A stretch of 64,000 nucleotides of DNA, taken from NCBI GenBank assembly GCA_039621445.1, contig CP154954.1:13386716-13450715 (forward strand), read 5' to 3'. Numbering within the stretch: position 1 is the first letter of the stretch; each line of letters opens with the position of its first letter. A program made the position numbers and the translations under genes. Shown here piece after piece: positions 26,294-59,039 of this stretch. The notes beneath the pieces are model-generated. The model was not told the DNA's origin, ran no database searches, and saw only the letters and a program-made list of their open reading frames with translations. The DNA comes from Euglena gracilis (Eukaryota).

Positions 26294-26330
<37 letters not shown>

Positions 26331-27190
26331 GTCCCGAACCACCCCCTATGCAGTATGCAGGACAAATTGGAGAATGGGCCAAAAATGGGCATTTTGGCAA
26401 GGTTTAAGGTTTGGAGGGTTCCATAAAAATTTTGGAAGAAAAGCTTCCCAGACTTGAATTGTCTTGTGTCGGACCCTTCTTTCAGCTCCCAACATGCATG
26501 TAAAGGGGAATGATATTTTTCAAATTTGAAAAATAAAAATATATATTTTTCAATTTTTCAATTGAAATTTTTCAATGAAAAAATTCATTTATTTTTCAGG
26601 CACAACCCTACTCCCACTGTTGCAAGGTTGGTCGCCCTCGGTCGACCCCCACTCCATAACCGCCAATGTCCGCGGGCCCCAAAAATGAAAAAAAAATGTT
26701 TTCTACCTGTATTGGGGGGCAAATCCCCTTTGTTGTTCAACTGTCCGAGGGCCCCAAAATAACAAAATACCTTGTGTTGCCCACCCGTTTTGGGGTGCAA
26801 ATCCCCTTTGTTGTTGAACTTGTCCGAGGGCCCCGAAATAACAAAATCCCTTGTGTTTCCAAGCCATTTTGGGGGCTAATCCATTTTGTTGCTCAACTGT
26901 TTGACTCCCTTCTATGTTGGCAACATACTCCGGGGTTAAGTCGTTTTTGTGGCTCACTTTGGCATAGGCGGGGGGGGCTCCGCCCCCCCCGCACCCCCCC
27001 CTCAAATAACAAAATCCCTTCTATGTTGGCAATATACTTGGAGGGCTAAGTCCTTTTGTGCAAAATTTGACTTATATTGACTTATATACAACGGATAGAG
27101 GTGTTCTTTTGCCAAAAGTGGCCCAAAATGGACATTTTCCCCCAATTTTTTTGCATATTCACCCCCGATTGGGGGGTTCTGGGGCTCCCG

Positions 27191-34990: not shown

Positions 34991-35127
34991 CTTGTGTTAT
35001 CGTTGGTGCCGGCCATCGTCATATGGGTGGTGTTCATGGATCTAATGACGTCGTCCGTGGACCTGCTGCGCAGCACCACCCACGACTCGATGGACGTCAT
35101 GGCACAAAATATTCAGCAGTTGCTGAT
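34991..35127 (+). CDS. Adenylate cyclase exon 1 (TM1; true start lies upstream, unresolved)
   Basis: LVLSLVPAIVIWVVFMDLMTSSVDLLRSTTHDSMDVMAQNIQQLL; followed by GTC-CAGGTT, which pairs with AACCTG-TTGGT at 35610-35620. Confidence 0.75.
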
Positions 35128-38100
35128 GTCCAGGTTGAGGTCTTTGCAACTTTTGGTGCATGGCTTGATCCCCCCGCGGGGGGGGGGGGGTTGGTTTGTA
35201 CTCTGGAGCAGAGGTTTACCCCTTTTTTTGGTGTTTAATTTGCCAAATGATGGAGGAAGGGAAGGAAGGGAGGAAGGGAATGAAGTGAATGCCAAAATGT
35301 CATTTTGGAGGAGGGGGGCTTTGTACCTCTTGATAACCAACCACCCAAGTTGCGGTGTTCAAGGGTGAATTTGAATTTGAACCCACAGCAGTGCGGGAAA
35401 AAAAGAACTTCCCCAAATTTTGTCCAACATTGGAGAAAGGGGGTTGAGCGAAAAGCTGGGGAACCCCCAACTCATACATTTACTTCCAACCCCTTTCCCA
35501 CCCCCTCCCCCAATGTATTTCATTCTTGAGGGTTCTGGAGGAATTTGACTGCTTGCAATCCAGATTCTGAAATGGAAATCATTCAAGGAAAAAGACAATT
35601 GGAACCTGAAACCTGTTGGTGTATCAAGCGATTGAAAAGTTTGACACCCACATCACGGAGGGCGAGAGGGAGATGATGGAGTTGGCCTTGATGATCCAGG
35701 GGAGTGGGGTGCTGAGCTTCAGTCGGGCACCTGCTACGCATATTTTTTGGTGCTCTTCTGCCTGATAGCATCAAAATTATATGCATTGTGCTATGCCTGC
35801 ATGTGTTTTTTCTACAATCTGCACACAAAAAAATTTCATGTTTTTTGATTTTTTTTGCAGTGAGGATTTTTGGACAGTTTTGTGGTCCCCACAGGTTCTC
35901 AAAGGACATTTGTGTTTCTTTTGTCAGTGCATTTTATCGACTGCTCATTTCCATGTTTTGTGCCACCACTGTCTGTCAAGGCGTTGGACTCTCCATTGAG
36001 GCCACAGGGGCCTGGCTACGACCTCCACCCCTCCCGCTTCGATATCCCAAAGCAAGGATTGGCCACGTCTGCCCCAAAGACTCTCAATTTTTTGAAATAT
36101 TTTTGAATGGATTCCCCTTTGGCGTTGCTTTTTTTATGCTTGGTGGAATTCTTTTTTTATTTTTGAAACAAATGGTTGTCTCTTTCCATCCCATGAACGA
36201 AACCATGCCCTTATCTGATAAGATCAGATTACGCTTTAAATGGCTCAGAATAAAAAAAATCCCACCTAAATTAATTGGGCAATCAGCAGGGGGGGGGGGG
36301 CGCACGTTTTTTGAGGGTTTTTTTTTGGAATAAAAAAAAACAGGGCCAGTTTCCTCAGGGCTCAGGGCCAGTTTCCCCCCCAGGATCTTGTCCTGGGGGA
36401 TCTTCGGGGAACAATGCTCAAATGCAAAATCCCTAGAAGGAGTCTCAAAAAAGGGAAAAAAAAGGCTCAAACATATAATGATGTTATTTCAAGACTAGGG
36501 GGTCCGGGTGGCAGTACCCCCCCCCCCCCCCCGGTGGTGGGGCCGAAGGCACCCGGAACTCCATGGCGAGTGAGTCCTGGGGGGGGGGGTCCTGTGGTGG
36601 TTCTGTGGGGGTATTGGGTGTTCTTTTTCCCAGAGATTTTTTAATTTTTTTCTGGAAAAACAATGGAAGTTTCTTCTTTTTGGTGCCGATCTTCCCCCAA
36701 CTAAAATTTATTGTCAATTTATTGTCAATTTTTTGCATTTTTTTGGTTAAGAAATTGCACGTGTGAATGTTTTTGTGCAAAATGAAAAATTTGCCCTGAT
36801 GGAGCCAAATTGTTTTGTCCTCCTCAGCAGAAAGTGCACATTCTGAAGGATTCTACATTCAGTTTGCTTTTTTTGGCCTTTTTTTTTCTGTGTTTATGCC
36901 CCCGCCAAGAGAGGCCATTTTTTGGTGCCAGGTGGTCTGACATTGGGGCGGGGGGAGGGGCGACACTGTCCTGTCTGCTGTCTTCTGCCTTTGCCGGGAC
37001 GTCCCCAAATTGAAAAAGGAGAGGGTCAAACGCATGCCTTTAGACACATTTTCCCCGACGTTTTTGGAATCGACGATGCTCCTTTTTTTCTTTGTGCACC
37101 AGCACCTTCGACGTTGGGGGCATGGGTGCCGGCAGCTCCCTTCCACAGCCAACCTTTCACCACAATGCAGGCCCATCCCTACTTCTCGCAGGCAGCCGTG
37201 TTGGGCAGTTATTTTGACCCGACAAACGCTCAGGGGCGACACACCGCATGGCTTAGCAGGCCCTGCTCTCCCAGGGGACCCCATCCAGCCAGTAGCCTTG
37301 ATCCCCAGCCATGGACCTCCCCCCACCAATGAGTGAGTTTGTAAGTCTTGCCGCCCAAAAGGCCATTGAAGCACTGCACATACTTCAACTTGAAAGCGCC
37401 AAAATGGGCAGAAATGAACAAAAATGGGCTCAAAATCGGGCTGCCTTGCCCATTTCCTCGTTTCCCCCCCAGTTTTTCCGTTCCGGCCGCATTCTTGTAT
37501 AATTGGTGCTGATTTTCCCTCTAATTTTTAGGTCCAGTTCGATCCCAGTTCAGGCTGTGGTACGAGGGGTTCAGCTGGTCTTTTTCCAGATCCACCATTG
37601 GGACATGTTTGACTTGTAAGATTTTTTCATCCCATTTTAAAGACAAGAATTATGGGAGATGAAAATTATGGGAAACCGCCTTGATGATTTCCAGATACTT
37701 TTTCCCATAATTTTGTCCACTCAACCTTTCCTAACCCCCCCCCCCCGAATAGAAGCCCCCCCCCCCTGAAAAGTGCCCCCCCCCCCCCCGAATAGAAGAC
37801 CCCCCCCTCGGTTTTCGACCAAAATTCCGAATAGTGCCCCCCTCCGAATAGTAGCCCGCTCCCCGTGGGTTTGGGGGGGGGAGTGGGGGGCGTGGGGGGC
37901 GTGGGGGGAGTGGGGAGTGGGGGGTGTGGGGGTAAATGTCTAGTATGGGCTCCAGTTTTTGCAATAACTTTAAATGAGGGTTGGGTGAGTTTACGTTTAA
38001 TGATCCATCCACAAGAGTAACATTTGCAGCAAATTTGACATGGTTTGGAAAGTAGACCCACAAAGAAATTTCTTCGATAATGCTTGGACCCCCTGATTTT

Positions 38101-39545
38101 CGACCACTTTTCTGAATAGTCCCCCCCCCCCGAATAGAAGCCCCCCCCCCCTCGGTTTTCGACCAACGTTCCGAATAGTAAACCCCCCCTCCCTAATAGA
38201 AGCACGGATGCGCTTATAGCGGACTGCCATTTCTGGCGGCGGGGGGTGCGCTTCTATTTGGACCCTACCTGCGCGATTTTTGTTGCTTTCCTTTAGAAAT
38301 CCCATCAAAATGGGGGGTGCGCTTGTAGTGGACCGCCCTCTTCGACGGTGGGGGGTGCGCTTTTATTTGGACCCTGCGCTTGTAGCGGCCCCGCGCTTCT
38401 ATTAGGGGGGGGGTTAGCCCCCGGGGGCTTCTATTCAGGGCTTTTGGTGCTTTGCTGGAGGAGTATTATTGTCGATTTTTTGGGGGTTATTTTGAAAAAT
38501 CACGATAAACACCACCAGAACTCCATGTTGACCATATTTGGAAATTTGTTTTGCGTTGAAATTTGTGTTTTTTTTAGAAAAGAAAAATGATGTGATGTAA
38601 TTTCATTCAAAATTACACCACATCTGAAAAATTTTCCCTGAAAAATTTGAATTTTCCCACAATATCTTCCTTTAATTTTTTGTCTCCGTAATTTTTTTGT
38701 CCACACTCTAACGGGAGAGGAGAAGGAGAGGAGGTCATTTCCATTGATCCGCTTAACACCCATGTGACCCCTCGGGGGTGGGTCCTCAAGAGTGGGTGGG
38801 TTCGGCTGCTGGACCCCCCCCCCCCCCCGGGCTGGGGGGCAGACTTTGGCCCAGCCTGGCTTTTGGGTGGGGGGGTTGTGGGTAGGGGTGGGTGGGTGGG
38901 TGGGTTTTCGGAAAAAGTGGGTGGGTGGATTTAGGGCCGGGGAAATGTGTGGGACTATTAAGTGAATTTTTGGCCACGTCATGCAGGTGTGAGATGTAGC
39001 AAAATGCACCGAACCAATGCAGACATGCACGATCACCGTCGTTGGACTGCATTGCCACCGTCTTTGGCTTCATTTTAAATTTGACTGTTGTTGCTTCCAG
39101 GAGAATTAACGCTCTTTGAAGTTTTTCTTTTTCCTACTTCAGAAAGGAATGGTCATTTCCAATACTGGGGTGCTAGTGATGTGTGTGGGCATGCAATGGC
39201 TTGCGATGGTTTGTGCTTCAGATTCTCTGCGGGGACGTTGGCAAGAAATGTTTTCGCTTGAAGCGAAGGATCCTTGTGGTTCAAATCTGGTTCCCATGCT
39301 GCCTCTGTCACCACGACCTTCACCCCCATATTTTGGGTGACATGGGTGGCGTTCCTCATTGATGTCCTCAAGCAGAGCTTCGGCACCCGCACGCTGTATG
39401 TCAGCCAACTCGCCATGGCACCGAACGAGAAGGTGACGACGATGGGCTGGGTCCTTCCTTGTGGCTCAGTTTTTTTTTCTTTTGGCTTGTGCTAAAAGTC
39501 ACTGGAATTCACACAAAATACACACATGGAAGACACCAACACACT

Positions 39546-39598
<53 letters not shown>

Positions 39599-42500
39599 TG
39601 TGTGTGTGTGTGTGTGACATGTGTCATGTTGGGTGCCGCAAGTGCATTTTTCTGTACCGGTGTGAATGAAAACACAGATGGACACCCCACCCCAATAAAT
39701 GATGTGTTGTATTTTTGAGTGGACAAATTTCTTTGTCGAAATTCACATCATTTATTCTGCCTGTTCAGGCTGTTGTGAAAGCGTAGAGTATGGGTAGTGA
39801 GTAAGGGTTGCTTGCACATAATCCCTATAGTTCATTTGGGGTCATCAAGAAACCTTGACTCAACTTCTTCAATTTTTCACCTCACCTGAAATTTTCACTC
39901 CCGCCTCCTTTGTGCCAGTTATTGTGAGAATTGCCTGGTGGTGGTGGTGGTGGTGGGGTATGTCTGGAAGGGATTAGTATTGCTTTTCCTCTTTTCAAAC
40001 TGAGAAAGCGCTCGCCTTTTTTTGATACAATCATTATTTGAAGGGAGAAATGACCCACCGAGCTAACATTTCCGCAGTCAACCAGTTGACGGCAAAGCCA
40101 GTGTATCTGCTGCAGAGTCAGACGGCACCTTCCCAAGTTTTCGACAGGCCCCCACCCTGGAAAATGAACGATCTATGAATTCTGAATGGCCTGCAACAGT
40201 GTTTCATTTCATCAAATGCTGAAACCTCCAGGGCAAGGTTTGAGTCGATCGGTTGACAGTAGGGGTGGATTTAGTAAGAGAAATAATAATAATGTTTTTT
40301 TTCTGACTCAGACAGAATTTTTCATACCCCTCCCCCTCCCCCAACGACCACCCTATTTTACTGACCACACCCCAGTTCGGGGTTGCAGGTCAGGGGGTGC
40401 CAACCCCCCCCCCTGGTCGGGGGTTGTTGGCGACCAAGGGAAAATTGGGGTTTTTGGCGCCGGGTCGTACCCCCCCCCCGAGGGTTGCAGTTCAGGGGTG
40501 CGTATGACCCCCCCCACTTATCGGGTGGAACCTCGTCGGTGGACAAGGGGGGCTAGGAGAGTAAATGGCACAAACGTTTTTTTTTTGGATGCGTTGAAGG
40601 ACCATCCAGCCAGCAGCCTTCATCCCCAGCCATAGACCTCCCCCATCAATGAGCTGTTAAGTCCTGCCGCCCGAAGGACCATTGAATGTCAGGGAAGCTC
40701 GTTCAAGTTCGAGCCCATTTTTCGTTCATTTCTGCCCATTTTTCGGCCGCCTCGACCCGAAGAATCTGTGGTGCAGAGCGTTGCTCAGAAAATTTGCCCC
40801 CCCCCCACCCGAGGGGGTCCAGCCAGCCAGCCAGCAGCCTCTACAGCCAGCAGCCTTTTTTCCAGCCCCGGAACCCCCTCCCCCCCATCAACAAGTTATA
40901 TTCATGGACGGTAACAAATTTCTCGATTTCGGGGGTGCCAAAAATGGGCAAAAATGTCAAATATGGGTCGGATTTGGGCTGACCAGGGCGAATTTGGGGT
41001 CAATTCGATTTTTTTTCTGCATAATTGGCAGTTTTTTTTGGACATTTTTGCAATTTCGATTTTTTTTTTGATTCCCAGTCGATCCCCAGATTGGGGCTGG
41101 CTCCACCCCAGGACCCTGTGGGGGGGGGGAGGGGGGTCAGCCATGCAGTTTTTTTTCTCTCCAGCCCGAATTCTCCAGCCTCTTGGAACCTCCTGGGGGG
41201 GGGGGGTCCTTAAGAAACGCCCTTGTTCCCTGTCCTATTTTTTTGCATACATTCTTGTAAACTTGGTGCTGTTTTTTTTTTAATGAAGTCAACCCCCCCC
41301 CCAATATAAAGCCCCCCTCCCCCGGCTTTACATTTGGACAGGATTTCAAGGCCCCCAGGGGGGGCTTTGTATTTGGGGGTGGAAATCAAACTTTTTTTGG
41401 TGGCCTCTATGACCTTCGGCGGCCTCAATTGTGGCCAAATACCACTTTTATGCCAAATTTTTGTTGTGTACCTCCTATTTCCCCCCAAAATGGGCAATTA
41501 TTGTCCAAAATGGAGCATTTTTGGTGAGAAAAGAGTTTTATCCACCCAATAGTTTTCTACTGTTTCCTGAATGACACCATCGGCTGGCTCCACCGGCTTT
41601 ATATTTAGGCGGCAAGACAATCGCGAGATAGTTTGCCTGCCTAATAAAATTTTATCTTGCATCCGCGTGATTCTGTTGGCATAGCCCACCAACTCTCGAT
41701 ATGATGGAGTTCCTCCTCCTTACATGCCAACTTGCCCGGCCTTTGGTCTTTTGCAAATGACCGCCAAAATTGTTAAAATGTTAAAGCCCCCAAAAGGTTG
41801 CCCCCCTGGCCTAACTTTCAATCATGGCCCGGGCCAAGCGCCAGGGGGTAGGTAGGTATATTTCACTGGGGGTAGTGGATTTGTGGGTCTGTGTTAACCC
41901 ACAAATATTTTCCTGACTGTTCCCTTGACAGCAACTGTATAGAAGGCAGAAGACATGCCCGTGCTCTCTGAAGAAAGTCGAGTTGTGCCTCACTTCCAGG
42001 AAGTGGAAAACTTGCATGAACAATTCAGACACGCCACTTTCTGAATATGATTTGCACCATAAAATAGGCAGCCAGCCATAATTCCTCAGACATTGCATTA
42101 CCTCAACAAACCCACCTTCATTTTGAGGTTTACACACCTTTCTAAACTGTGCATGGCCACTCAACACTGTTGGCAAGGGAGACTGTGGGAAGGTCCTGTC
42201 TGGGTTCAGGTCCATCAACTGCCAAACCAATGAAAGCTCGGGGAAAGACAATGAATGGCAGTGCAACGACATGGTTCAGGAAGAGGGGCATGCAATGAGG
42301 AAGAGGGGCGTGCAAGGGTAGCATGAAGAGGCGATTGGAGGGTTACACGTGGTTGCCACAAGTGTTCCATATGGGACTCAAGAAGATCCCTGTAATGATG
42401 CGTGATTTCGGTAATGCTGCAGAAGAGCCGCCCTCGGTCACCAGAACAACTTTGGGCTAGTTTTCCTGTGAATGTTTTTGGTGGCATTTTTTTTGAGTTT

Positions 42501-44922
42501 AATTTTTACTTTTATTCAATTTATTTCAATTGTAATTTTGATTTTCTGGCATCCCCCCTGGTTTTCCATGGCGCAGGCCTCCCCCCAATCTGGCGAAGTG
42601 GGACGACGGCTGGCTGGGCTCCATGATGTTCAACCGCTACACGGGGCAGGTGGAGCTGTCCATCCGGCAGAGCGCAGGGACTCTCTGGCGGCCAGCCGGA
42701 TGCCCCCTCCCCACCGGCTCATTGGGCTGGCAGGCCATTTGCTGAAAGGGATCCAGAAACATGGTTTTGATGATGCTCAAAGTTTCAAGGTTCTGAACAT
42801 CTGTGTAAAAGGGAAGGTCCAGACCATCAGGGTTCCGTTTTTTTCCCTTGGCTTTTTCAAGCCTTGTGTACCAGGCCAAATTGCTTGCCAGAATTGCTTG
42901 AACAGGTGTTCGAGCAATTCTGAACTGGGTTCAGATGAACAGAACGGGATTTCTGGAACCATCAGATTGGGGGGTGGTGTCAAGCAGCCACAGCATTTTC
43001 CCAACCGACACCAATTGTTGCAGCCCGTGGACCCCGGAATTGGCTTTTCATGGGCAGTGTAAGCGAAGTCCCCAGCAAGCGAATCTCTGGCCCCACCTCG
43101 CTGCCCAGAACGGGACGTGGGTCCAGCTGTACATCAGTATGGGGGCATCGACCATCAGCGACGAGCTGCGGAGCCAGCTGGAGGGGTTCCCGGATGTTCA
43201 AGTGCCACCCAAAACTGCTGTGAGTTGGTTTGTCCTGCAGTTTTCTGTGCATTTGTTGTGCAGACACTTGTTCGATGGATGGATGGTTGGGAATGATAAT
43301 TGTGTGATGACTGTGTCCGACATTTTTTCTTAAATTGATGAACCTTCTATGTTTTGTGTTTCTTTGAGCTTTAAGGTTGTCCCCCTGACGGACAAATGTT
43401 ATATATTTTTTGTGCATCTCACCGAAAGATAGCACTTTTGCAAAGTTGTGTATTATTGCCACATCAAACACACAGCCTCAGTTCTCATTATCTGATGCAT
43501 TAAATCATATTGATGTGTGGCTGCAGTTTACAATAGCTTATTGCTTCTCATGGTCAGAAATCACTTTCTGTTTTCGAATTGGTGATGCAGGCTGGGTGCG
43601 CTTGTAAGAGACCGGCTGGTGCTCTTCTTCCGCCAGCCCCACGGTTATATGATAGCACCCAGTGGTACTCTGACCCTTCCTTTATCAGTTTATCCCTGTT
43701 TATCCCAGAACTGTGCAAATTATTCACAAAATTCTGAAATTGCAGTTTAATTGGGTTTGTTTGTTTTGTGTATGTTTTATGTGTGTTTGTCTTCTTCACT
43801 CTGAACCTACAACGTTTTTAATTGCATTTCCTTTCACCTCTTCATTTCTCACCTTTCCCTCAACGTTCCATCTTCGATGGCCCCACAACCCCAAACCCAA
43901 TTCGTCCCCCAGAGTCGTTCCATGCCCCAGGGTTAGCTTACAAAAAGGGTGTCATGGGTTTAAGCGAGGAGCCCCCTTTGTAGAGGGTGAGGGTCCCTCC
44001 CTCCTGGGTGGGGGGTGGGTTCGGACCCCCCCCCCCCCGACTTGCGAAGGGGGAGTCTGGACCGACCAGGGGACCCGACGATCCGCAATGGTCAATTTTT
44101 TTTTGCCTCCAACAGTTAACACCAAAATTTTTAACAATTTTGACAATTTCAACAAGTTTTTGTCCAGAAAGTGCCAAAATTGCATTTTGGGTCGATTTGG
44201 GAGGTAAAAAAAAACTTTGGCTTCATTTTGGCCAAGCCGCTGTTTCGGTTTTCTGAACCCCCCCCTCCCACCAAACCCTGTCTGCCCTTGCTTCCGCATT
44301 CCTGCGGTGGCCGACTACCCACCTCGGCACACCGCTGTCCTCGGCCTCGCTTCCGCATTCCTGCGGTGGCCGACGACCCACCGCGGCACACCGCTGTCCG
44401 CGGCCTCGCACGGGAAGTACTTCAGCCACAGCGACGTGGACCGACGCTACATCAACCCGCTGGTGAACCCCACCAACGTCAGCGCGTACCGCCTCTGGTC
44501 CAGGCTGGGTCTTGAATCCGCAGCTTGTGAGCAGCATCTCTTGCATTTGCCATCGAAGGCGGTTGAAATTCAGCCTGACCTTGACATGCCTTCAGAGCAA
44601 CGACGCACTCATCTTTCAGGCCTGCCAACAACTGTATGGCACTTACCAGTCCGGGGAGGTCCTTTCTAACTGAAGGGACAGAACAGGAGACAGTGTATTG
44701 AACAGTTGTTTACAGGTGCTGGTTTGGGCTGGCCGAGTTTTGGGTTTGACGATGGGTATCGTTTGTCATCTTTTTGCACGGCGACACTTTGAGACACACC
44801 AAAGGCCCTTTTAAAACCAGAGGGACTTGTGGTGCCAATGACCACTTTAAAACACCTCTACAGGTTTGGTTTTGCCATATACATACATACATACATACAT
44901 ACATACAGACAGACAGGCAGGC

Positions 44923-44959
<37 letters not shown>

Positions 44960-47900: not shown

Positions 47901-50900
47901 GGCAGATTCAAGAAAAGCCCAATTTCCTCCAGTGAACCTGCGAAATTTTCTTTGGCATTTTGCACGGTTCCTTGGAATGTTCCAAGTCACCTGTTCAAAA
48001 GGTGTATTGATCATTCAGCATGTGATTTTTTAACGTTCAAATCCAAACTTTTTGAATTTTGGATTTGGAGAAACCAATTTTTGGGTTTGGTGTGGAATTT
48101 CCCTGAAGAATGGCTTTGTGAGATTTTCTTCATCCAGAAATTTCCTGGCCGTTTTAAGGGGGCGTCCAGGATTTTCCCCGCATTTTGAGGATTCCCCACA
48201 AAAAATTTTCCATCTGCAATTGTTGCTGATCAGATCCCGCCATTTCAAGGACATTTTGTCCCTCTCCCTTGGATGTCACGTTGGGTCAACTGACTTTTTC
48301 TGTTGGAAAGTCCACTGGGAGGCCTCCACGGCAAGTTGTTACTCACCCTCCCTTCCTAAAAATGAAATGAACCCCCTTATAGCACCAAAAAACCCTGCCT
48401 CCTGGGGGGTCAAAATACCCCCCCCCCCACTCCGCCTGTCCATACTGGGGGGCTGGGCGACCGTTGCCAATTGTCCAACGAACAAGGGGCGTCCAGACTG
48501 TGTAGATTGTCTCCTTTCACAGCAAATGGATGATTATTTCCTCGTCCAATGACCGGGCTTGTCCAAGAAATCCCCCCCTGGTCAGATGCGACCTGTGATG
48601 TTTGTCCCTAAGTAATGGAGGAATTGTGGTTTAATTTCGCTTTTTTTTGTATTTGCAAGTTTCAGAGAAGCTTTTTTTTTGCAGCCTGTTGGAAAAACCA
48701 TAAACTGGCTGAAATGCCAAAATGACCCCCCCCAAAAAATGGCCAATGCCCCCGCAATGGCTCCCAAAATGATTCAAATTGGTGTACCCCCTGTCTGCTG
48801 ACCACCCCGTCAGGCTTTTTGTCAGGCTGTATGACATCGAAATCTCATTCCTGCCTTCCTGCTGATGGAAGATGTCACAGGGTTGAATAATACATTTCAG
48901 GGGAACGTGGCAGATGACACCCAATCATATGTCTATCCAGCAAAAGATCATGTCAGGGAAAGGTCCCAATGGGGATAAATCCCCTATACATCGACACCTC
49001 CTGGTCGGAGGATGAAGGTTGCAGGTGGTTTTGAATATTGGGTTTTTTTTTGGCACCTAACCCCCCCCCAAAATAAGACCCGGGTCTTATTTTTGGGTCC
49101 GTTGCTGGAAACCTCCAGGGGGGGGGTCTTATTTTTGGGGGGGTTCTTATTTTTGGATTTTTTCTTGACCGACCCGGGACGAAAAAAACATCATTTTTCA
49201 GGTTCCCAAAAACACTAAAAATTTTCCTTCGGCGCTTCGCGCCATGTGTAAATTTGTGTAAGTGGACATTTAGCATGTTTTTTGCACTTCAAGAATCTGA
49301 AATTTTTTGAAATTTCATCATTTTTGTGTGTGAAATTTGGGTTTTTGGCAATTTCTCAGGGAAAATTTTCACCGTCCCCGGCGCTTCGCGCCGTCAGGGG
49401 GGGGGGGTCTTATTTTTGGGGGGGGTCTTATTTTGGGGGGGGGTCTTATTTTTGGGGGGGGGGTTTAGTCGTGCAACCACTCCCTGGTCGGGGGTTGTTG
49501 GAACCTGGTCAATGGGGAGGGGGCTGGTAAAGTGAGGTTGCGACAAACAGCCGAAAGTTGCTCAAATTTGGCCAAAAAATGACCAATAATAGTCGAAATG
49601 GCCAAAAAAATGGCCGACAGTGGCCAAAAATGGCCAGAAGTGGTCAAAGGATGCCAATTGTGCAAAAAAAAAAGGGGCTAAAAACAGCCAAAATGGTCTT
49701 GATTCCCTATTTGTGGCCAACTTTTTGCCAACATGGGGTTCCCCTATTGTCTAACAACCCCCTCCACCCCCTGGTTGGAGACAAACGTTGGCTGTTTTAG
49801 CACCCCCCCCCCAGTCGGAGACGATCATTTGGTGTCATTGAATCATGAAATGGGGGGAGGTTGCGAACCCCATGCTTAATGAACGTCTAATGCTTAATGC
49901 TTAATGAACCCCATACTTAATGAACTGTCCGGACCAATCCCTCGGGGGGGGGGGGTTGGTCAGACTCAGCTTGGACCGCGTGCATAACAGCCGAAGACCC
50001 CCTCCTCCAGGGGGTTGTGGAAAAGAAGGCTGCTGTGGGCGTTTGGGAAGTTCGTGCCCCAGGCGGTGGTGAAGGTGCTGGGCAGCCCCGGCCCGTGATG
50101 TGCCAAATTGGGGCATTGCGTCTTGCACAAACCCTGATGGATCCTGAATGGCATCTGGGAAATGAGGTTTCTCTCTGGAATCCCTTTCTGGAGTGACAAA
50201 AGGGACCAGCGGAAAAAACAGCCAAATCCACCTGAGATGCCAGATTTGTCCCAGTCTCAGGATGTGACACGTCACGTGACACCCCCAAATGACATGGGGC
50301 CAACACCTGCAACCAAAAAGAAAACCTTGAAAAATTGGCTGCTTGAGCACAAGGAGAAAAACCCAGGCATCACAGCTGGGCGTCTCCGATTGCAATGCCA
50401 AGGCACTGGGGCATTTCAAACCAACCACAGCAACCGGTGACCCTTGACATGTACATCGAATGTGCGGCTTCTTTGTCGAGTCACCTCTTTTGACCGGCGG
50501 CTGATTCTGATTGCTGGCCAAATGAAAGCCAACGATGAGATGCACCCCAAGCAGGCCGCTGTTCATTGTTCCTGAGGTCTAATCTGCAATCCTAAAGGTT
50601 TCGTCTCTCATCCGGAAACCGAAGATATGGGCCGTCAGTGGTAATCCGTTTAATCATAAATTTGCGCCAAAGTGAGCCCGCTGAACTCCTGATCTGCTGA
50701 ACTTCCCCGTTTTTTTTTCATCGGCCCCCTGGCTGTGGGTTGCAGATGCCTTTGGCGTCACTGTTGAGCTGTTTGGAATCAGTTCCACCTGTGGTTGCAG
50801 CCTGCCAGAGGGGACATGGGATGGTTTTCCTGAGGTCGCAACCAAACACGTGAGTTTAAAGCCCCACCACCATGGAGATGGTGGTGGGGCAATCAGTTGC

Positions 50901-52678
50901 CTGCCACTGAAACGCTGACCATCATGTTTGCGGACATTGAGGGCTTCTCCACCATCTGTGAGAATGAGACCCCCGCCGCGCTGGTCGCCGTGTGCACGGA
51001 GTACTTCGAGGCCATGTGCAGCGCACCGAGTCTCCTGCAGACAAACCCCAGAACACCCCCCCCCCCCAACGACAGGAAGTTTTGGAAACTTTCAAACACA
51101 CACTAAGCGAAGGAAAATATGGCTCAAATCACCGAAGGTTTTCAGGAACTGGGAAATGATGTGTCTTTATGTCGGTCCTTCCTCAATGAAGAATCTTGAA
51201 AGTGGGGTATGTTCCCACCCATATGTGTTTCATTTCGGCTCTTTGGCTTTTTTGCCATTTTTCTCACATTTGGCTTGCAAAACGGCTTTTTCGCCATTTT
51301 CTCAATGGCGAAACGGCTTTTTTGCTGTTTTGCCAACGGCTAAACGGCTTTTTCGCCGTTTTGCCAACGGCGAAACGAAAAGCCATTTTGAAACAAGTCG
51401 GCTTCTGATGGGTGGGAACATACCCTCTAAAATAAGGAACGGTCTTGTTCCCAGGGAAGGTCTCAACCCCAGGGGGATGTGGGTCGTGAGAGAGCAACCC
51501 CCCCCCCCTTCGATGCGGAAGGTTCTAGGAGCCCAAAAATGGCCCAAGCTGGGACTCAAATTCCCCCCCTGGTTGTGTCCCTGCTATGAGCTAGCACCCC
51601 ACACAGCGATGTTCTAAGTTTGTTGACCTGGGGGGGGGCGCCCCCCTCCTGCTGGGGTTTAGTCGAGGGGGTATCCTCCTCTAGCGGTTCTCCTCTAATT
51701 TCGGTCTGAAAGCTTTTTGAAAACTTTTTCGACCAAATTTGACCCCCGAGCTCTCCCCCCCCCCCCGTGGGGGCCCTCTGGGTGGGTGGGTGGGTGCCGA
51801 CCTCCCCCTCCAGATCCTGAAGAACCTCTGAAAACCTTCTAGCACGAGGCACAATCTCCCCGGGGCTTGTTAAAAGGAGCCTGCTGGAACGTCCTCTGTA
51901 TGGGTCTCGGACCCCAATATTGTGGAACGAAATGGCACCATCGACAAGTTCATCGGTGACTGCATTGAAAGCCCCACGGTCGGCGGTTCGGTCAACCCCC
52001 CCCCTTCGATCCAACTGCTCCGCTTTTGACTACTCGGTTGGTGGTGTGACTCCGAGGCAAGTGGGGAAAAGGCACTTCCTGACAGTGTTTGAACATTATC
52101 GTCCAGATTTCCTTTTTTTAATAAACAATCTAATGTAATGGATATGTGCATGTATTTAGGAACATATACACACCGCATATGTATATATATATAAAATATG
52201 CACATGTACATAGGTATATGTGCATGTGTGTGTCCATATGTATTGGCAGGTGCACCTTTTGATTCCCTCCCCCTTGGGGGTATCAAAGTGCACACTTGGT
52301 TGGCCACGGATGCCCTGGGGATAATGAGGGTTAGGCTAATTATCGGCCTAATTATAGGTTAGTTTGGGCATAATGCAAGGCCTATTTTTTTTTTTAGGAT
52401 TTCGGCCTAACTGTAGCCTAAAACCCTAACCCTAACCACTCCCAAACCCCAACCCCAATTGCTTTTTATGGGATAATCTGGAACTCGCTTCCTCACATCC
52501 AAAATTATCAAATTTCCACCGTCGGAAGATCGAAGTTGGTGGAGAAAACGGCCAAAATCAAGGGGCCGGTCCCACTTGTATGACGCGGGAGGGTAAAAAA
52601 ACCCTCACCTCATACTGGTGGGACCCCCCACCAGTCGGGCCCAACTAATATGGGGTCGCCATGCATGCATGCATGTGA

Positions 52679-52709
<31 letters not shown>

Positions 52710-55700
52710 TGTATGTATGTATGTATGTATGTATGTATGTATGTATGTATGTATGTATGTATGTATGTATGTATGTATGTATGTATGTATGTATGTATGT
52801 ATGTATCTATGTATGAATGAATGTATGCATGTGTGTATATGTGTGTATGCATATCCTCACGACTGTTTGAACAAGGTTGTGCACGTGTCCTCGCTTTACA
52901 TAAATATAAATAATAATACTGTACATACTTATGTATTTGTACCAGATTCTTCTCCTCATAAACCACCCAGTCCACCACCTGTTTCTGTCGATTCCCACCC
53001 GTGGGGCTGCGCCATGGCGATGTGGAACGCGCCGGAGAGGCTGCCCGGACACGAGAGGGACGCTGTGGCCGCGTCGCTGGCGATGCAGGACGCCCAGGGC
53101 TCAGACATTACCAAGCCCCCCCCTCCCCCGGAAAAGGTCTCGTTTTGGGGACTGTCACCGGCTGACGGGTTATGTTGGACAGATGTTGCCACTAGAGGTC
53201 CTCCTGCCAAGCTGTTCTCTCGGCTTTTATGACAACGTCTGATGGGGGGGGGGTTGGCATGCATCCTTCAGTTAGACCCCACGCTCCATACATGGCAAGA
53301 TTCATGTTATTTTTTTGGTCTGTGATCCCATTGAAATTTCTTTTCTGCACCATCTGGGCGGAAATCATTTCTCTGTTGGTGAGCGAACACAAAAGAAGTA
53401 AGTTTGCACCCAGAGTTAAGCTCACCATCCAGTTTGGTTTGCACCAGAATTCCGATCCCAAATTCTCGATGGAAGTCATCATCAGGGATAGGACCAAAAA
53501 ATTATGGGTTCGAAATTCTCGAACTTTTCGTACCTTTTTTCTCAACACCGCCTCTGCCCAGTCCCATCCCCTGATTCTGAAGGGAAACTCCCCCAGATTT
53601 AAGCACCCGTTGAATAAATTTGGGTTTCAGCCGATCTGCCCAAGGGGTGGCCTAAATCTGGTGGCTGCTTCCATTTTGGGTTGAATGGATAGTCAATGGA
53701 TAGTCAATTTCAATGGTTCTTGGCAAGATATGAACCGACACCGTCCAAATCCGAAATTGGATGTGTGGCAGCCAAAACCATCCCCCCAACGGAGATGGCA
53801 TTATTGGCAGAGGGTCCCAAAAAAGAAACACACACACATGTGGAAGCTCTTGGTCCTCTTCTAAGATCAGGTCCTGCCGCTTGCGTCGTGGACCTCCACC
53901 AGTTATGGCGGTCCCGGGGGCTGCCCAGACCTCTCCTTCGCGCATGTCGGCAAAAAATGCAATTTTTTCCAAAAATATTTGCAAATTGGGGGCCTTGACC
54001 CGCACTAAGGAGAGGCCTGGGACTGCCAGTGCTGAAGTTCCGCGCGGGCATCCACACCGGCCAATGTCTCGTGGGCAACTTCGGCCAGTGCCGAGTCCAC
54101 GTATCTGTGGATACCTTTTTTTGCCCCTTCCCGGATCTCATAACATGCTTCCCTCAACAGGAGTCTGCAAATCCAGGTCAGAGGTCATTTTGGTGGTTGC
54201 TGACCCTTCCCCAGGTTGTTTCTGGTTTTCTCCCACATAACAGGTTTTCCTTGAACATTGAGAAGGCACCACAGACGGAAATTTTTCCTTCAAACATTGG
54301 TTTTTCTCAAGTTTTGATTTTTTCTGGCTCCAAATCCACCCTCTTTTCTTCATGGTTGCGAAAACACCCGGGGGGGGGTTCAATTTTTTCCCTTGAAACA
54401 CAAAAAGAGAATCCGGAGAATGAGGAACGCCCTGGAATGTTCAGAACAAAAGTTATGTTTATGACCACAGATAATGCACAAGGCGCAGCTAGAATGACGC
54501 TATCCACAGTGAATTTCGAAGCTTTGAAGGACATTTAGAAGAATTTTTCCAGAGCTCCTCATCAAATATGCCAAATTCTGAAGTTGGGAAGGTTTTTGCG
54601 GGGGCATCTGATTCGCACCTCATTGCAGAAGCCCAGGTCATGTTGCTGGCTGCAGGGGGGTGCATTTCGCATTTTTTCCTGCATTTTTTGGGGCTTTTTT
54701 TGCGCATTTCCCCCCAAATTTTCCACAAATGGGCACTTTTTTTTATTTTTTTCGACACAATTTTTTTTTGCTTTTTTTTGCCATTTTTTCGTGATTTCCC
54801 CAATTTTTCGAATCTTTGACCATTTTTGCAATTCTTTGCATTTTCTTGAGATTTTCGAATTTTTTTGAACCTGACTTTTGCTGCCGACTGGCGGGGGGGG
54901 GGGGACCTTGCCGACGTCGAAGAAAATGTGCAAAAAGAATGCACAAAAATGTGGCACTTTGTGTGCAAAACCTAGAGAAAAGGCACAAACATCAAGAAAT
55001 GTGAAAAATACCCAAAAGCGTGCAAAAATGGCACCAAATTGACAGAAATGATATTGGAATTGTGATTGACCGCCCCACCCCAACCCCCCAAATACTCCCC
55101 TCTTGCTTCAGAAGACCTCTGGCCAGGCAGGTTGGCAAGTGGAATGGGAGGAGTTATCGAAAAGAGTTGTCATCTGACAATCACAGGCAAACAAAAAAAC
55201 AAAGAGCCCCATTGTCTAGGCCCCTGGCATTTCAGTCAATTCAACAACTGTAGTAGTATCCTGCTCCGCTTGCTCTCAGGAACCCCATTTTCCTGAGCAA
55301 CCTTCCCAGGCAAAGAAGTTGTATTTCTGTCCGATATTCTGGTGCGTGCTTCTCGTCCTCTTCCCCCCATTCTCCGTTGTCCCGGGGAGGTGGGCTCGGT
55401 CGCTGGGGGCTGGCTGCAGCTACCGTGTCAGCTACACCTGCCTGGGGGACGGGGTGGGCCAGCCCCCTCCCGATTGGCATGCTGCCCATGTGGACATTGG
55501 GCCGTTGCAGTCGTTGGTCTAGTTTGCCCTTCCCCCTGGGATCTGCAGAAGCACACTCCCCGAACGACTGTTTTGCATGTTGTTGTTTTTAATGTTTCAC
55601 CCCTGTTTCAGCAGAATTGGGGGTTTGGGGGGTTTGTCTTATTTTGAAAAATTTGGCCATACTCCCCCCTGCCCCAGGGTTGGGATCCCTGAAACCTCAT

Positions 55701-56582
55701 GGGTGGTGGGAGGGTGTGTCGATCTCCTCATCCTGGTCGGGGGGGGGGGCATCACCCCTTCACCCCTTCCTTCACCCCTTCCCATCTCACAAATGCCGAT
55801 TTTGAGGCACCATTGGCACCGAAGGAATTTTGTTTGACTGCCATGGTCAGTTGGAGTCCTCCCGACCATTCTCCCCACCCCCAGGTCCCACACCCAGGGG
55901 CTGCGCACCAGGCCTTCTGAACACTGCCCCATTTTGAGTGCCTCCAAATGATTCACCAGGGGGTTGAGGTTCTTCAAGTCGTCACGGGGTGTTGACCATG
56001 GTATTGCATGCAAACCATGATCTGCAATTCAGCTCACTCACAGGGTTTCTTTGAGGGTTTTTTTTTGTGGGTGTTCGAAAATGTATTTTGTTTATTCCCA
56101 CCGTTTCTTCATTTAGCCCGTGTGACCCCACCTCTGAGGGGGTTTGAGAGTGGGTGGGTTGGGGTTGAGCTGCTGGACCCCGCCCCACTCCCTGGGGGCG
56201 GGATGCACTTTGAGTCAGCCCAACTGGGCCGGGGCTGGGTTGGCAATACATATTTCGAGGGGTTTTGGCAGATTTGGCATGGTTTTGGGCTGGATGAGTG
56301 GGTGGGTGCCCCCCCCCCCTGCAGGGGGGGAGGGGGAGGTCCGGCAACAGGTGCCCACCCCCGCCCAGGGGGCCACTGAGTGAATCCATGTTCCTACCAA
56401 GAAGCTTCTCTTGTGATGGATGGGGGGCGGGAGGGGCGCTGCCGGCCCAACCTGTCGGCGCGGCTGGAGCCGCTCAACAAGAAGTTCGGGACGTTCCTCT
56501 GCGTGTCCCACGCCACGTTCGAGGCCTGCCGGGGGGACTTCCACTTCGGCGGCTGGCGAAGGTGACGGTGCCCGGCAACGCC
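34991..56582 (+). CDS. Receptor-type class III adenylate cyclase (2 TM, large extracellular domain, HAMP-like linker, cyclase domain); 24 exons joined across 23 nonconventional introns; 5' and 3' ends incomplete
   Basis: Exons joined at stem-defined junctions give one reading frame, apart from a 1-nt slip in exon 24. It contains TIMFADIEGFS, TIDKFIGDCIMAMWNAP, FRAGIHTGQCLVGNFG and SYTCLGDGVNLSARLE (class III cyclase motifs), two hydrophobic helices (exons 1 and 14) and a HAMP-like segment. Exons: 34991-35127, 35621-35720, 36020-36066, 37140-37227, 39313-39444, 40062-40153, 42583-42671, 43095-43195, 43610-43656, 44402-44497, 44583-44647, 45430-45515, 45953-46062, 46432-46527, 47674-47784, 50038-50079, 50509-50548, 50909-51022, 51916-51966, 53014-53091, 53882-53922, 54025-54082, 55412-55456, 56449-~56582. 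Confidence 0.9.
35621..35720 (+). CDS. Adenylate cyclase exon 2
   Basis: YQAIEKFDTHITEGEREMMELALMIQGSGVLSF; next intron AGT-CGGGCACCTG...CAGGGGCCTG-GCTAC, in frame. Confidence 0.75.
36020..36066 (+). CDS. Adenylate cyclase exon 3
   Basis: DLHPSRFDIPKQGLA; the 3' boundary rests on a short stem only (GTC-TGCC...GGCA-GCTCC). Confidence 0.6.
37140..37227 (+). CDS. Adenylate cyclase exon 4
   Basis: FHSQPFTTMQAHPYFSQAAVLGSYFDPTN; next intron GCT-CAGGGGC...GCCTCTG-TCACC. Confidence 0.7.
37730..38440. mobile_element. Intronic MITE-like element (CCGAATAGAAGCCCC repeats) in intron 4
   Basis: Repeated CGAATAGAAG motifs with an inverted CTTCTATT end; related copy at ~4020-4245. Confidence 0.5.
39313..39444 (+). 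CDS. Adenylate cyclase exon 5
   Basis: TTFTPIFWVTWVAFLIDVLKQSFGTRTLYVSQLAMAPNEKVTTM; next intron stem TGGGTC/GACCCA (3' boundary +/-1). Confidence 0.75.
39545..39616. repeat. (GA)n(GT)n microsatellite in intron 5
   Basis: Directly visible. Confidence 0.95.
40062..40153 (+). CDS. Adenylate cyclase exon 6 (3' boundary approximate)
   Basis: ANISAVNQLTAKPVYLLQSQTAPSQVFDRP; open frame directly after the partner stem of intron 5. Confidence 0.6.
42583..42671 (+). CDS. Adenylate cyclase exon 7 (5' boundary approximate, within a C run)
   Basis: PNLAKWDDGWLGSMMFNRYTGQVELSIRQ, GC3-rich codons; next intron GCG-CAGGGACTC...GAATCTCTG-GCCCC. Confidence 0.7.
43095..43195 (+). CDS. Adenylate cyclase exon 8
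   Basis: LAAQNGTWVQLYISMGASTISDELRSQLEGFPD; next intron GTT-CAAGTGCCACCCA...TGGGTGCGCTTG-TAAGA. Confidence 0.8.
43610..43656 (+). CDS. Adenylate cyclase exon 9
   Basis: DRLVLFFRQPHGYMI; next intron ACC-CAGTGGT...ACCGCTG-TCCGC. Confidence 0.8.
44402..44497 (+). CDS. Adenylate cyclase exon 10
   Basis: ASHGKYFSHSDVDRRYINPLVNPTNVSAYRL; next intron (85 nt) GTC-CAGGCTG...CAGCCTG-ACCTT. Confidence 0.8.
44583..44647 (+). CDS. Adenylate cyclase exon 11
   Basis: TCLQSNDALIFQACQQLYGTY; next intron AGT-CCGGGGAGG...CCTCCCTGG-CCCCC. Confidence 0.8.
44877..44968. repeat. (TACA)n(CAGA)n microsatellite in intron 11 (copy at ~58953-59049)
   Basis: Directly visible. Confidence 0.95.
45430..45515 (+). CDS. 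Adenylate cyclase exon 12
   Basis: SWTAIPAMNQEMVLSAQRYWVATGYSTG; an alternative stem register is possible at the 3' boundary. Confidence 0.75.
45953..46062 (+). CDS. Adenylate cyclase exon 13
   Basis: SLLCTVLMLKNRAAVMGSIDASNAHVDQRVADKKGV; next intron GGC-CGGGG...CCCCG-CCTGT. Confidence 0.8.
46432..46527 (+). CDS. Adenylate cyclase exon 14 (TM2, start of HAMP-like linker)
   Basis: FVILGVVSAIAVLLPLSVGLWMASRLYTLAR; next intron GGT-CAGGGCC...GGCCCTG-CCTCC. Confidence 0.85.
47674..47784 (+). CDS. Adenylate cyclase exon 15 (HAMP-like)
   Basis: MDRIAQLQFTTTATKPTVFRELHRFQTSFTQMERGL; next intron GGG-CAGGCTTCTTTT...AAAAGAAGGCTG-CTGTG. Confidence 0.85.
49056..49468. mobile_element. Intronic MITE (AATAAGACCC family) in intron 15
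   Basis: CTAACCCCCCCCCAAAATAAGACCC inverted to GGGTCTTATTTTTGGGGGGGGGGTTTAG; copy at ~63140-63630. Confidence 0.6.
50038..50079 (+). CDS. Adenylate cyclase exon 16
   Basis: AFGKFVPQAVVKV, resembling the F-x-x-[YF]-V-P linker upstream of class III cyclases; next intron GGG-CAGCCCCGG...CCGGCGGCTG-ATTCT. Confidence 0.85.
50509..50548 (+). CDS. Adenylate cyclase exon 17
   Basis: IAGQMKANDEMHP; next intron AAG-CAGGC...GCCTG-CCACT. Confidence 0.8.
50909..51022 (+). CDS. Adenylate cyclase exon 18 (first metal-binding Asp)
   Basis: ETLTIMFADIEGFSTICENETPAALVAVCTEYFEAMCS; next intron GCA-CCGAG...CTCGG-ACCCC. Confidence 0.92.
51916..51966 (+). CDS. Adenylate cyclase exon 19 (substrate Lys, second metal Asp)
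   Basis: NIVERNGTIDKFIGDCI; next intron GAA-AGCCCCACGG...CCGTGGGGCT-GCGCC (perfect 10-bp stem). Confidence 0.92.
52680..52830. repeat. (TATG)n microsatellite in intron 19
   Basis: Directly visible. Confidence 0.95.
53014..53091 (+). CDS. Adenylate cyclase exon 20
   Basis: MAMWNAPERLPGHERDAVAASLAMQD; next intron GCC-CAGGGCT...GGTCCTG-CCGCT. Confidence 0.9.
53882..53922 (+). CDS. Adenylate cyclase exon 21
   Basis: CVVDLHQLWRSRG; next intron (102 nt) GCC-CAGACCTCTCCTT...AAGGAGAGGCCTG-GGACT. Confidence 0.85.
54025..54082 (+). CDS. Adenylate cyclase exon 22
   Basis: PVLKFRAGIHTGQCLVGNF; next intron GGC-CAGTGCCGAGTCCAC...GTGGGCTCGGTCGCTG-GGGGCT. Confidence 0.9.
55412..55456 (+). CDS. Adenylate cyclase exon 23 (substrate-specifying Thr)
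   Basis: GCSYRVSYTCLGDGV; next intron GGC-CAGCCCCCTCCCG...CGGGAGGGGCGCTG (boundary +/-1). Confidence 0.9.
56449..56582 (+). CDS. Adenylate cyclase exon 24 (transition-state Asn/Arg); apparent 1-nt frameshift near 56547
   Basis: NLSARLEPLNKKFGTFLCVSHATFEACRGDFHF, then RLAKVTVPG in another frame; followed by GCC-CAGGG, a probable next intron start. Confidence 0.85.
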
Positions 56583-57259
56583 GCCCAGGGTGCAGGGGCT
56601 TCCGGAACGCACTGGCGGACCTGCTCTTCTGCTGTCCTGCGGAGGCACCAGAACTGCATGACAGAGGAATTGTATTGAACCCCCCTGGGGTGTGCGCTTG
56701 TGCGTGGGTCAAAAGTGGCTGTTTCTGGCTGGCCATGCCCCCCCCCCCCCGGAACATCAAGGGCTGTGGAATCATGCAGGTATGGGCCGATGTGATGCCC
56801 ATGGCAAAGAAACTGTGATGAAATGGCAAAGAGAACAGAAAAAATGTAAAACCACCCAGGGGGACCCAGCCAGGACTCCAACACAACACTGATGTGTCGT
56901 GTCATTGGTCAGGCCCATGCCTCAGCCCCCCCCCCCCCGGGTCTACTTTTTGGGTCCGTCGCTGAAAAGCGCGCGGGGGGGGGGGGTAATTCTTTGGCTT
57001 GGGGGTCCACTTTTTGCTGAAAAATTCATCCAAAATCTTTTTTCCCTCGAGAGGGTCCTAAAACAGTTCTAAAAAGATTGATTTTCGACATAAAATATAA
57101 AAAAAAATGCCAATTTTGACACACAACACAGACAAAAATAAAAAAAAAATGACAGAAATCACCCATTTTGGGGAGCATTTTGGGTTTATTTTTTGGTTTT
57201 TTCCCGCCAAAACCCCAAGGGGGTCTTACTATTTGGGGGGGGTCTAGTTTTGGATTTTT

Positions 57260-57272
57260 NNNNNNNNNNNNN
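57260..57272. other. Scaffold gap (13 N)
   Basis: Run of n characters. Confidence 1.

Positions 57273-58998: not shown

Positions 58999-59039
<41 letters not shown>

Follow-up and report, generated by a model that had tools for sequence, protein, structure and literature searches.

A Euglena gracilis membrane-bound adenylate cyclase gene in which 24 introns are very probably all of the nonconventional euglenid type

The DNA analysed here, called the window, is a stretch of 64,000 nucleotides from Euglena gracilis contig CP154954.1 (assembly GCA_039621445.1, positions 13,386,716 to 13,450,715 of the forward strand), and all positions are counted from its first letter. The region very probably holds a nuclear E. 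gracilis gene for a membrane-bound class III adenylate cyclase from a large paralogue family, interrupted by at least 24 introns that all belong to the nonconventional introns of euglenids. A protein search with a single exon-sized stretch (50894-51037, plus strand) returned 38 proteins at E <= 0.001. All 37 matches with a named source were euglenid transcript entries of EukProt, and the cyclase domain PF00211 was present in all 38. The best match, EG_transcript_6004 (656 aa), matched the aligned part of the query with 100% identity. This protein was tiled in full by 25 plus-strand segments between 34036 and 56523, which are exact matches distributed over the three forward frames. The joined exon model agreed with EG_transcript_6004 in 655 of 656 residues. 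The sole mismatch is residue 586 in exon 22, a valine in the genome and a methionine in the transcript-derived protein. Pfam placed PF00211 at residues 503-639 (E 1.9e-16, 60.6 bits against a cut-off of 21.9), in a protein that is itself cut short at its C end. Two hydrophobic stretches were found at about residues 3-40 and 402-430. The class III nucleotidyl cyclases of E. gracilis with trans-membrane segments are described by Ebenezer et al. 2019 (PMC6366073) as a greatly expanded family, and the gene belongs to it.

The exons were 38-141 nt long with a G+C content of 59.5%, the introns 85-2444 nt with 48.1%. A preliminary description of this DNA, made from the letters alone, had given an intron range of 85 to about 2400 nt, which agrees with the measured lengths. 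It had also counted 24 exons. Here the transcript-derived protein corrects the model to 25, adding a further 5' exon at 34036-34076 and the 910-nt intron 1, so that the exons described before correspond to exons 2-25. Since the joined exons give the transcript-derived protein, introns 1-24 are removed from the mature transcript, as judged by a test at the protein level.

We enumerated for every pair of neighbouring exons all donor and acceptor placements that reproduce EG_transcript_6004. At the protein level the boundary could slide by at least one base in 22 of the 24 introns and was unique only in introns 6 and 8; for these 22, single-base positions are thus inferred and not read. None of the 24 introns could take GT-AG, GC-AG or AT-AC ends at any protein-compatible placement. 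The preliminary description had stated that no intron of the gene is GT-AG and that conserved cyclase motifs are split at the junctions. Both statements proved correct, with DKFIGDCI|MAMWNAP divided by intron 20, VGNFG|CSY by intron 23 and GDGV|NLSAR by intron 24.

The intron ends were then analysed for base pairing. With G-U pairs counted, 19 of 24 introns had a helix of 3 bp or more that starts at +4 and -6, that is, behind spacers of 3 nt on the 5' side and 5 nt on the 3' side, and 15 had a helix of at least 5 bp in this register. The introns that lack a 3-bp helix there are 1, 6, 7, 23 and 24. As a control, each 5' end was re-paired with the 3' end of another intron under the same sliding freedom. 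In 5000 such permutations on average 7.8 and at most 16 introns reached 3 bp. The summed helix length was 118 in the true pairs, compared with a permuted mean of 46 and a maximum of 76. This control is conservative, since CAG and CTG are common to many introns and their ends therefore cross-pair; 30% of the mismatched intron-end pairs reached 3 bp. Folding of the first with the last 25 nt gave an average duplex energy of -21.6 kcal/mol for the true pairs and -15.4 kcal/mol for 552 mismatched pairs. The terminal pairing is real and well above chance, and the comparison with shuffled ends that had been proposed for this gene thus came out in favour of the pairing.

A matrix over all start registers revealed that +4/-6 stands out, followed by the inward register +5/-7. 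When the 5' spacer was kept at 3 nt and 3' spacers of 5-7 nt were allowed, a helix of at least 3 bp was found in all 24 introns. Permuted partners under the same rule gave a mean of 14.3 and a maximum of 21 introns (3000 permutations). A helix of at least 5 bp was present in 19 of 24 introns under these spacers, against a permuted mean of 4.2. The 3' spacer measured 5 nt in 19 introns, 6 nt in introns 1, 7 and 23, and 7 nt in introns 6 and 24. The register had been described before as fixed at +4/-6, the 5' arm beginning 3 nt after the 5' cut and the 3' arm ending 5 nt ahead of the 3' cut in 19 of 23 introns. This count was reproduced for the 23 introns of that range with helices of at least 3 bp, but the register is fixed only in these 19, and in five introns the 3' spacer has to be 6 or 7 nt long. 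The two introns with a unique boundary are included in this pattern: in intron 8 CAG/CTG lies behind spacers of 3 and 5 nt, and the spacers of intron 6 measure 3 and 7 nt.

The sequence N3-CAG...CTG-N5 was found in 11 introns, the same count as had been reported. Among the introns the paired bases covary. At +5 the pairs A-T, G-C, C-G and G-T occur, and four pair types each are seen at +4 and +6. The motif pairs that covary in this way are CAG/CTG, CGG/CCG, CGG/CTG, CAC/GTG, CAA/TTG, CCG/CGG and AGC/GCT. Covariation of paired positions is the pattern that a structural constraint predicts. At the helix-fitted boundaries all 24 introns begin with a purine and 20 of them end with a pyrimidine, a bias already pointed out in the preliminary description. 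Of the 24 downstream exons, 23 begin with a purine, and the only pyrimidine is the T of exon 22, after intron 21. The features and their coordinates are collected in Table 1.

Table 1. Features of the window. Exon rows rest on tiling by EG_transcript_6004 and retranslation, intron rows on placement enumeration and on the motif and helix search; other bases are given in the last column. Spacers are listed as 5' and 3' length in nt; "outside code" refers to the splicing code of PMC12501133.
Feature	Positions	Strand	Details	Basis
Receptor-type class III adenylate/guanylate cyclase gene	34036..56582	+	at least 25 exons	protein match, PF00211, hydrophobic stretches
Candidate AG acceptor for spliced-leader trans-splicing	34018..34019	+	16 nt before ATG	read from sequence
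Exon 1	34036..34076	+	start ATG	
Intron 1	34077..34986	+	910 nt; CGG/CCG; spacers 3 and 6; helix 4 bp	
Exon 2	34987..35127	+		
Intron 2	35128..35620	+	493 nt; CAG/CTG; spacers 3 and 5; helix 6 bp	
Exon 3	35621..35720	+		
Intron 3	35721..36019	+	299 nt; CGG/CTG; spacers 3 and 5; helix 5 bp	
Exon 4	36020..36060	+		
Intron 4	36061..37133	+	1073 nt; CAC/GTG (outside code); spacers 3 and 5; helix 3 bp	
Exon 5	37134..37227	+		
Intron 5	37228..39312	+	2085 nt; CAG/CTG; spacers 3 and 5; helix 8 bp; interspersed repeats inside	
Exon 6	39313..39444	+		
Intron 6	39445..40064	+	620 nt; TGG/CCA (outside code); spacers 3 and 7; helix 6 bp; unique boundary	
Exon 7	40065..40142	+		
Intron 7	40143..42586	+	2444 nt; AGG/CCT (outside code); spacers 3 and 6; helix 5 bp	
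Exon 8	42587..42671	+		
Intron 8	42672..43094	+	423 nt; CAG/CTG; spacers 3 and 5; helix 6 bp; unique boundary	
Exon 9	43095..43195	+		
Intron 9	43196..43609	+	414 nt; CAA/TTG (outside code); spacers 3 and 5; helix 7 bp	
Exon 10	43610..43656	+		
Intron 10	43657..44401	+	745 nt; CAG/CTG; spacers 3 and 5; helix 7 bp; 3' end inside 59-nt tandem duplication	
Exon 11	44402..44497	+		
Intron 11	44498..44582	+	85 nt; CAG/CTG; spacers 3 and 5; helix 10 bp	
Exon 12	44583..44647	+		
Intron 12	44648..45429	+	782 nt; CCG/TGG (outside code); spacers 3 and 5; helix 9 bp including G-U; 8 protein-compatible boundaries	
Exon 13	45430..45515	+		
Intron 13	45516..45952	+	437 nt; CGG/CCG; spacers 3 and 5; helix 4 bp	
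Exon 14	45953..46062	+		
Intron 14	46063..46431	+	369 nt; CGG/CCG; spacers 3 and 5; helix 6 bp	
Exon 15	46432..46527	+	second hydrophobic stretch	
Intron 15	46528..47673	+	1146 nt; CAG/CTG; spacers 3 and 5; helix 7 bp	
Exon 16	47674..47784	+		
Intron 16	47785..50037	+	2253 nt; CAG/CTG; spacers 3 and 5; helix 3 bp	
Exon 17	50038..50079	+		
Intron 17	50080..50508	+	429 nt; CAG/CTG; spacers 3 and 5; helix 5 bp	
Exon 18	50509..50548	+		
Intron 18	50549..50908	+	360 nt; CAG/CTG; spacers 3 and 5; helix 5 bp	
Exon 19	50909..51022	+	cyclase domain start	
Intron 19	51023..51915	+	893 nt; CCG/CGG (outside code); spacers 3 and 5; helix 5 bp	
Exon 20	51916..51966	+		
Intron 20	51967..53013	+	1047 nt; AGC/GCT (outside code); spacers 3 and 5; perfect 10-bp Watson-Crick helix; (TATG)n array inside	
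Exon 21	53014..53091	+		
Intron 21	53092..53881	+	790 nt; CAG/CTG; spacers 3 and 5; helix 7 bp; next exon starts with T	
Exon 22	53882..53919	+		
Intron 22	53920..54021	+	102 nt; 11 protein-compatible boundaries; alternative 53923-54024 has CAG/CTG, spacers 3 and 5	
Exon 23	54022..54082	+		
Intron 23	54083..55411	+	1329 nt; CAG/CTG; spacers 3 and 6; helix 5 bp	
Exon 24	55412..55456	+		
Intron 24	55457..56448	+	992 nt; CAG/CTG; spacers 3 and 7; helix 4 bp	
Exon 25	56449..56582	+	EG_transcript_6004 coverage ends at 56523	protein match, paralogue alignment
Probable start of 25th nonconventional intron	56583..57259	+	N3, then CAG at 56586-56588	paralogue alignment and sequence
Assembly gap	57260..57272	.	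13 N	
Second copy of 43209-49822	57273..64000	+	part of intron 9 to most of intron 16; runs off window end	
Inverted-repeat element	6420..7391		972 nt; 13-nt perfect inverted ends starting CAGG; perfect 8-bp flanking duplication; non-genic	
Nested inverted-repeat element	6468..7201		734 nt; ends match at 21 of about 23 positions; 7-bp flanking repeat; non-genic	
Inverted-repeat element	23698..26610		2913 nt; 14-nt perfect inverted ends starting TAGGG; perfect 8-bp duplication; non-genic	

Further structure at the splice sites was searched for, with negative results. Bulge-helix-bulge introns are cut by the tRNA splicing endonuclease and joined by an RtcB-type ligase, and they share with euglenid nonconventional introns cut sites that are set by RNA structure and not by sequence, and a release of the intron as a circle. 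Unlike in bulge-helix-bulge introns, pairing for a second helix was at chance level in the cyclase gene. The last six exon bases and the first six of the next exon formed 58 pairs, compared with 59.9 expected (p 0.70). Pairing within the spacers of the 24 introns was at expectation as well, and Rfam gave no family match in the window.

The features observed are those published for nonconventional introns of euglenids. Milanowski et al. 2014 (PMC3935182) described conserved pairing with CA/TG at +4, +5 and -7, -6, a purine at the start of the intron and of the next exon, and a pyrimidine at the end of the intron and of the upstream exon. For E. gracilis, CCAGG at +3..+7 and CCTG at -9..-6 were reported by Gao et al. 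2024 (PMC11170887), who counted 16,151 of 28,337 introns (57%) as nonconventional. In E. agilis the share is 71.8%, and the value for E. gracilis is similar (Nomura et al. 2025, PMC12501133). Knock-in mutagenesis in the same work demonstrated that splicing needs the CAG/CTG motif, a strict 5' spacer of 3 nt, pairing behind the motif, a 3' spacer of 5 nt (one extra base being tolerated) and a purine at the start of the next exon. The resulting code, 5'-N3CDG-/-CH'GN5-6|R, was found in 61.2% of nonconventional introns. The review PMC11282704 states that nonconventional introns are excised later than the conventional ones, as circles whose ends are full-length.

The introns of the cyclase gene are of the same kind. 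As in other euglenid nonconventional introns, GT/C-AG borders are lacking, pairing of the inverted repeats begins at +4 and -6, CAG/CTG outnumbers the CGG/CCG and CGG/CTG variants as motif pair, and the spacers are 3 and 5-6 nt long. The purine at the intron start, the pyrimidine at its end, the purine at the start of the next exon, lengths from tens to thousands of nucleotides and short direct repeats that make the borders slidable are likewise shared. They differ in details, namely that all 24 sit in one gene, that 8 of 24 fall outside the code and that two have a 3' spacer of 7 nt. The strict 5' and looser 3' spacer mirrors the insertion and deletion tests of PMC12501133. With the conventional Euglena introns, which are U2-type with GT/C-AG ends and a C-rich pyrimidine tract (PMC11170887), they have in common that they interrupt coding sequence of the same genome and have a similar length range; in contrast to those, none of the 24 can take GT/C-AG ends. 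The nonconventional identity proposed by the preliminary description is therefore upheld by the absence of conventional ends together with pairing in the published register. Its remark that the excision machinery has not been characterised agrees with PMC12501133 and PMC11282704. The locus shows a type of splicing that is already published and no new phenomenon; what had been rated as highly interesting is established knowledge.

Several points weigh against this assignment. The junctions derive from a protein predicted from a transcriptome assembly and not from a cDNA at the nucleotide level. Sliding boundaries were set to agree with the helix, which makes the introns look more regular; the permutation controls had equal freedom. 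The N3-CDG/CH'G-N5-6 part of the published code fits 16 of 24 introns, 15 of which also have the purine. Eight introns lie outside it, five with 3/5 spacing and other pairs (4, 9, 12, 19 and 20) and three with a longer 3' spacer (6, 7 and 24). The two 7-nt 3' spacers, in introns 6 and 24, have a length that lowered splicing in a published assay. Finally, the locus may not encode a full protein, with a 1-nt frameshift in exon 25 and its 3' end lost at an assembly gap. The eight misses do not exclude membership, since the code itself covers 61.2% of the nonconventional introns genome-wide, a share close to the 16 of 24 seen here. Moreover, all eight are absent from the transcript-derived protein, so pairing at the right distance may outweigh the letters. 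The helix and its distance from the cut sites may thus matter more than CDG/CH'G; published second-position swaps (PMC12501133) argue for some constraint on the sequence as well.

If intron types were independent, a gene with 24 nonconventional introns would arise by chance with a probability of 1.4e-6 at a share of 57%, or 3.5e-4 at 71.8%. This hints that intron type clusters by gene, or that the cyclase family gained its introns in a burst. A gene with 24 nonconventional and no conventional introns provides a worked example, and the published code could be probed with its naturally deviating introns, five with 3/5 spacing and other pairs and two with a 7-nt 3' spacer. Genes of this kind will escape standard gene finders.

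The observations at this locus (junctions obtained via the transcript-derived protein, absence of conventional ends, and pairing in its register) can be combined with published work into a scheme for intron removal. Pairing of a short inverted repeat near the intron ends would bring the splice sites into proximity in the pre-mRNA. An excision factor that recognises the foot of the helix, and not GT-AG, would make its 5' cut 3 nt ahead of the helix and its 3' cut 5 nt (in some introns 6 or 7 nt) past it. Joining of the exons and release of the intron as a circle would follow. That motif and spacers are required for splicing in vivo was reported in PMC12501133, and release of the intron as a circle is cited in PMC12501133 and PMC11282704; for tubA, PMC12501133 cites an earlier RT-PCR of such circles. 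We infer that the helices of these 24 introns form in vivo.

A first alternative accepts the nonconventional sequence and assigns removal to a spliceosome, possibly a specialised one, by two transesterifications; the helix would then only replace recognition by U1 and U2AF, and no separate pathway of the endonuclease-ligase type would be involved. We regard this as possible, albeit rather doubtful. The sequence is compatible with spliceosomal removal of nonconventional introns. For noncanonical introns of other species PMC11170887 describes removal with or without a spliceosome and calls for an experiment, and PMC11282704 leaves both options open. On the other side, the Discussion of PMC12501133 favours trans factors other than those of the typical spliceosome, the circles described in PMC11282704 have full-length ends, with no lariat form, and neither a pyrimidine tract nor an AG was seen at the 3' ends of the 24 introns. 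None of these three points is decisive.

The state of the 3' end bears on a second alternative, in which the locus would be a pseudogene or misassembled and the transcript would stem from a near-identical paralogue or allele. In that case this copy would not be expressed as a whole protein, even with a real exon-intron structure. Relative to the paralogues, exon 25 lacks one base between 56547 and 56548, which leads to a stop at 56563-56565, 16 nt further on; EG_transcript_6004 ends before this frameshift. In the shifted frame the match to the paralogues continues to about 56582. The remaining C-terminal region of the paralogues (about 150 aa) was not found in the window, and the 3' end of the probable 25th intron is absent from the assembled sequence. 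The one residue that differs from the transcript-derived protein also fits a second locus, and so does the 13-N gap that is followed by a 98.9% copy of exons 10-16. This copy is identical to the first at 98.9% over 6266 aligned bases, with 38 substitutions and 138 indel columns, all intronic. Its source may be the other haplotype, a scaffolding error or a true duplication in tandem. Against the alternative, 655 of 656 residues are identical over 25 exons, whereas similarity to the next paralogues is far lower once the cyclase core is left. Furthermore, the two copies show no difference in 621 exon bases, compared with 176 differing intron columns, and a single-base indel is a common assembly error. 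We therefore consider this explanation unlikely. Compensatory changes between the copies of introns 10-16 were looked for, and the first and last 20 nt hold one substitution and one 1-nt deletion, too few for a test.

That the introns are ordinary spliceosomal ones (GT-AG, GC-AG or AT-AC) with misplaced borders can be dismissed with near certainty: several of them (e.g. 2, 9 and 11) do begin with GT or GC at the chosen boundary and sliding leaves some freedom, but in none do GT or GC with AG, or AT with AC, coincide at one placement, and since the reading frame fixes the intron length, no other placement exists unless the protein is wrong. Nonconventional introns with terminal pairing remain the reading that we adopt for this gene.

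hAT-type miniature inverted-repeat elements are marked by an 8-bp target duplication and ends of the YARNG type. Three non-genic elements of the window (Table 1) have ends and flanking duplications reminiscent of this type, and the core of intron 22 (53926-54019) has 13-nt inverted ends starting with CAG (12 of 13 complementary) and an 8-nt flanking direct repeat (7 of 8 identical). As in hAT-type elements, the inverted ends of intron 22 and of the three non-genic elements start with CAGG, CATGG/CAGGG or TAGGG. A spacer of 3 nt and one of 5 nt add up to one 8-nt duplication. Nonconventional introns might accordingly be hAT-like inverted-repeat elements plus one copy of the 8-bp target duplication, split into the 3- and 5-nt spacers. 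If the element were removed along with 3 nt from one duplicate and 5 nt from its partner, the sequence before insertion would be restored. A miniature-transposon origin of nonconventional introns was proposed in PMC3935182, and an 8-nt repeat was described at a newly gained intron of E. agilis (Milanowski et al. 2016, PMC4770533). Elements with 8-bp duplications in the same 64 kb make this idea concrete.

The following results speak against the hAT origin. With flanks set by the helix, the 8-nt flanking repeat of the 24 introns had an identity of 0.344 compared with 0.296 expected (p 0.08), and a length of 8 was no better than a length of 6 (z 1.52 and 1.65). Flanks at the chosen borders (5 exon plus 3 intron bases against 5 intron plus 3 exon bases) gave a weak signal, 2.96 of 8 matches compared with 2.39 (p 0.016). 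A scan for direct repeats of 6-10 nt beside inverted ends found as many or more in the shifted control, owing to microsatellite noise, and only individual perfect cases carry weight there. blastn of the 24 introns against the window detected only internal interspersed repeats (introns 5, 7 and 16) and none at the intron ends. Four long upstream reading frames gave nothing above the Pfam cut-offs. Ten reading frames (98-161 aa) of the element at 23698-26610 were without a Pfam match, so this element appears to be non-autonomous. In contrast to hAT-type elements, then, no transposase domain was found in these frames, the search covering this window only, and with helix-set flanks the 24 introns taken together show no significant 8-nt flanking repeat. 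A link between hAT and Euglena was not found in the literature checked, and the word is absent from PMC11282704 and PMC11252322, which is not proof of absence. Overall we consider the hAT origin improbable.

Upstream of the start codon, a pyrimidine-rich tract at 33982-34019 ends in AG. Judged by its sequence, this AG is a plausible acceptor for the spliced leader and would be the only conventional-looking acceptor of the gene.

Repeats occur at several places in and around the introns. A 59-nt unit is repeated 2.1 times (93% matches) at 44286-44409, in an array that reaches from the 3' part of intron 10 into the start of exon 11. As a result, intron 10 has its acceptor-side motif twice, which could give an alternative 3' splice site. 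Microsatellites lie within introns 20, 12 and 6, namely (TATG)43 at 52680-52849, (ACAG)22 at 44881-44967 and (GA)25 at 39546-39596. A block rich in TATG/CATA near the start of the window (731-1756) is similar to the array of intron 20. Introns 5 and 7 share interspersed repeats of 35-270 nt and 67-94% identity with each other and with non-genic parts of the window, many of them with long runs of C or G. Such pairs are 37281-37434 and 40602-40742, 38185-38416 and 4021-4241, and 40918-41183 and 7414-7666.

Two further features were noted outside the gene. On the minus strand, an open frame of 366 aa (stop to stop, 30189-31289) has an ordinary composition; it matched no Pfam family, and the protein collection gave no relative of near length. 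ARAGORN predicted a tRNA-Ser with the anticodon TGA at 22755-22829 on the plus strand, and the window had no Rfam hit at gathering thresholds.

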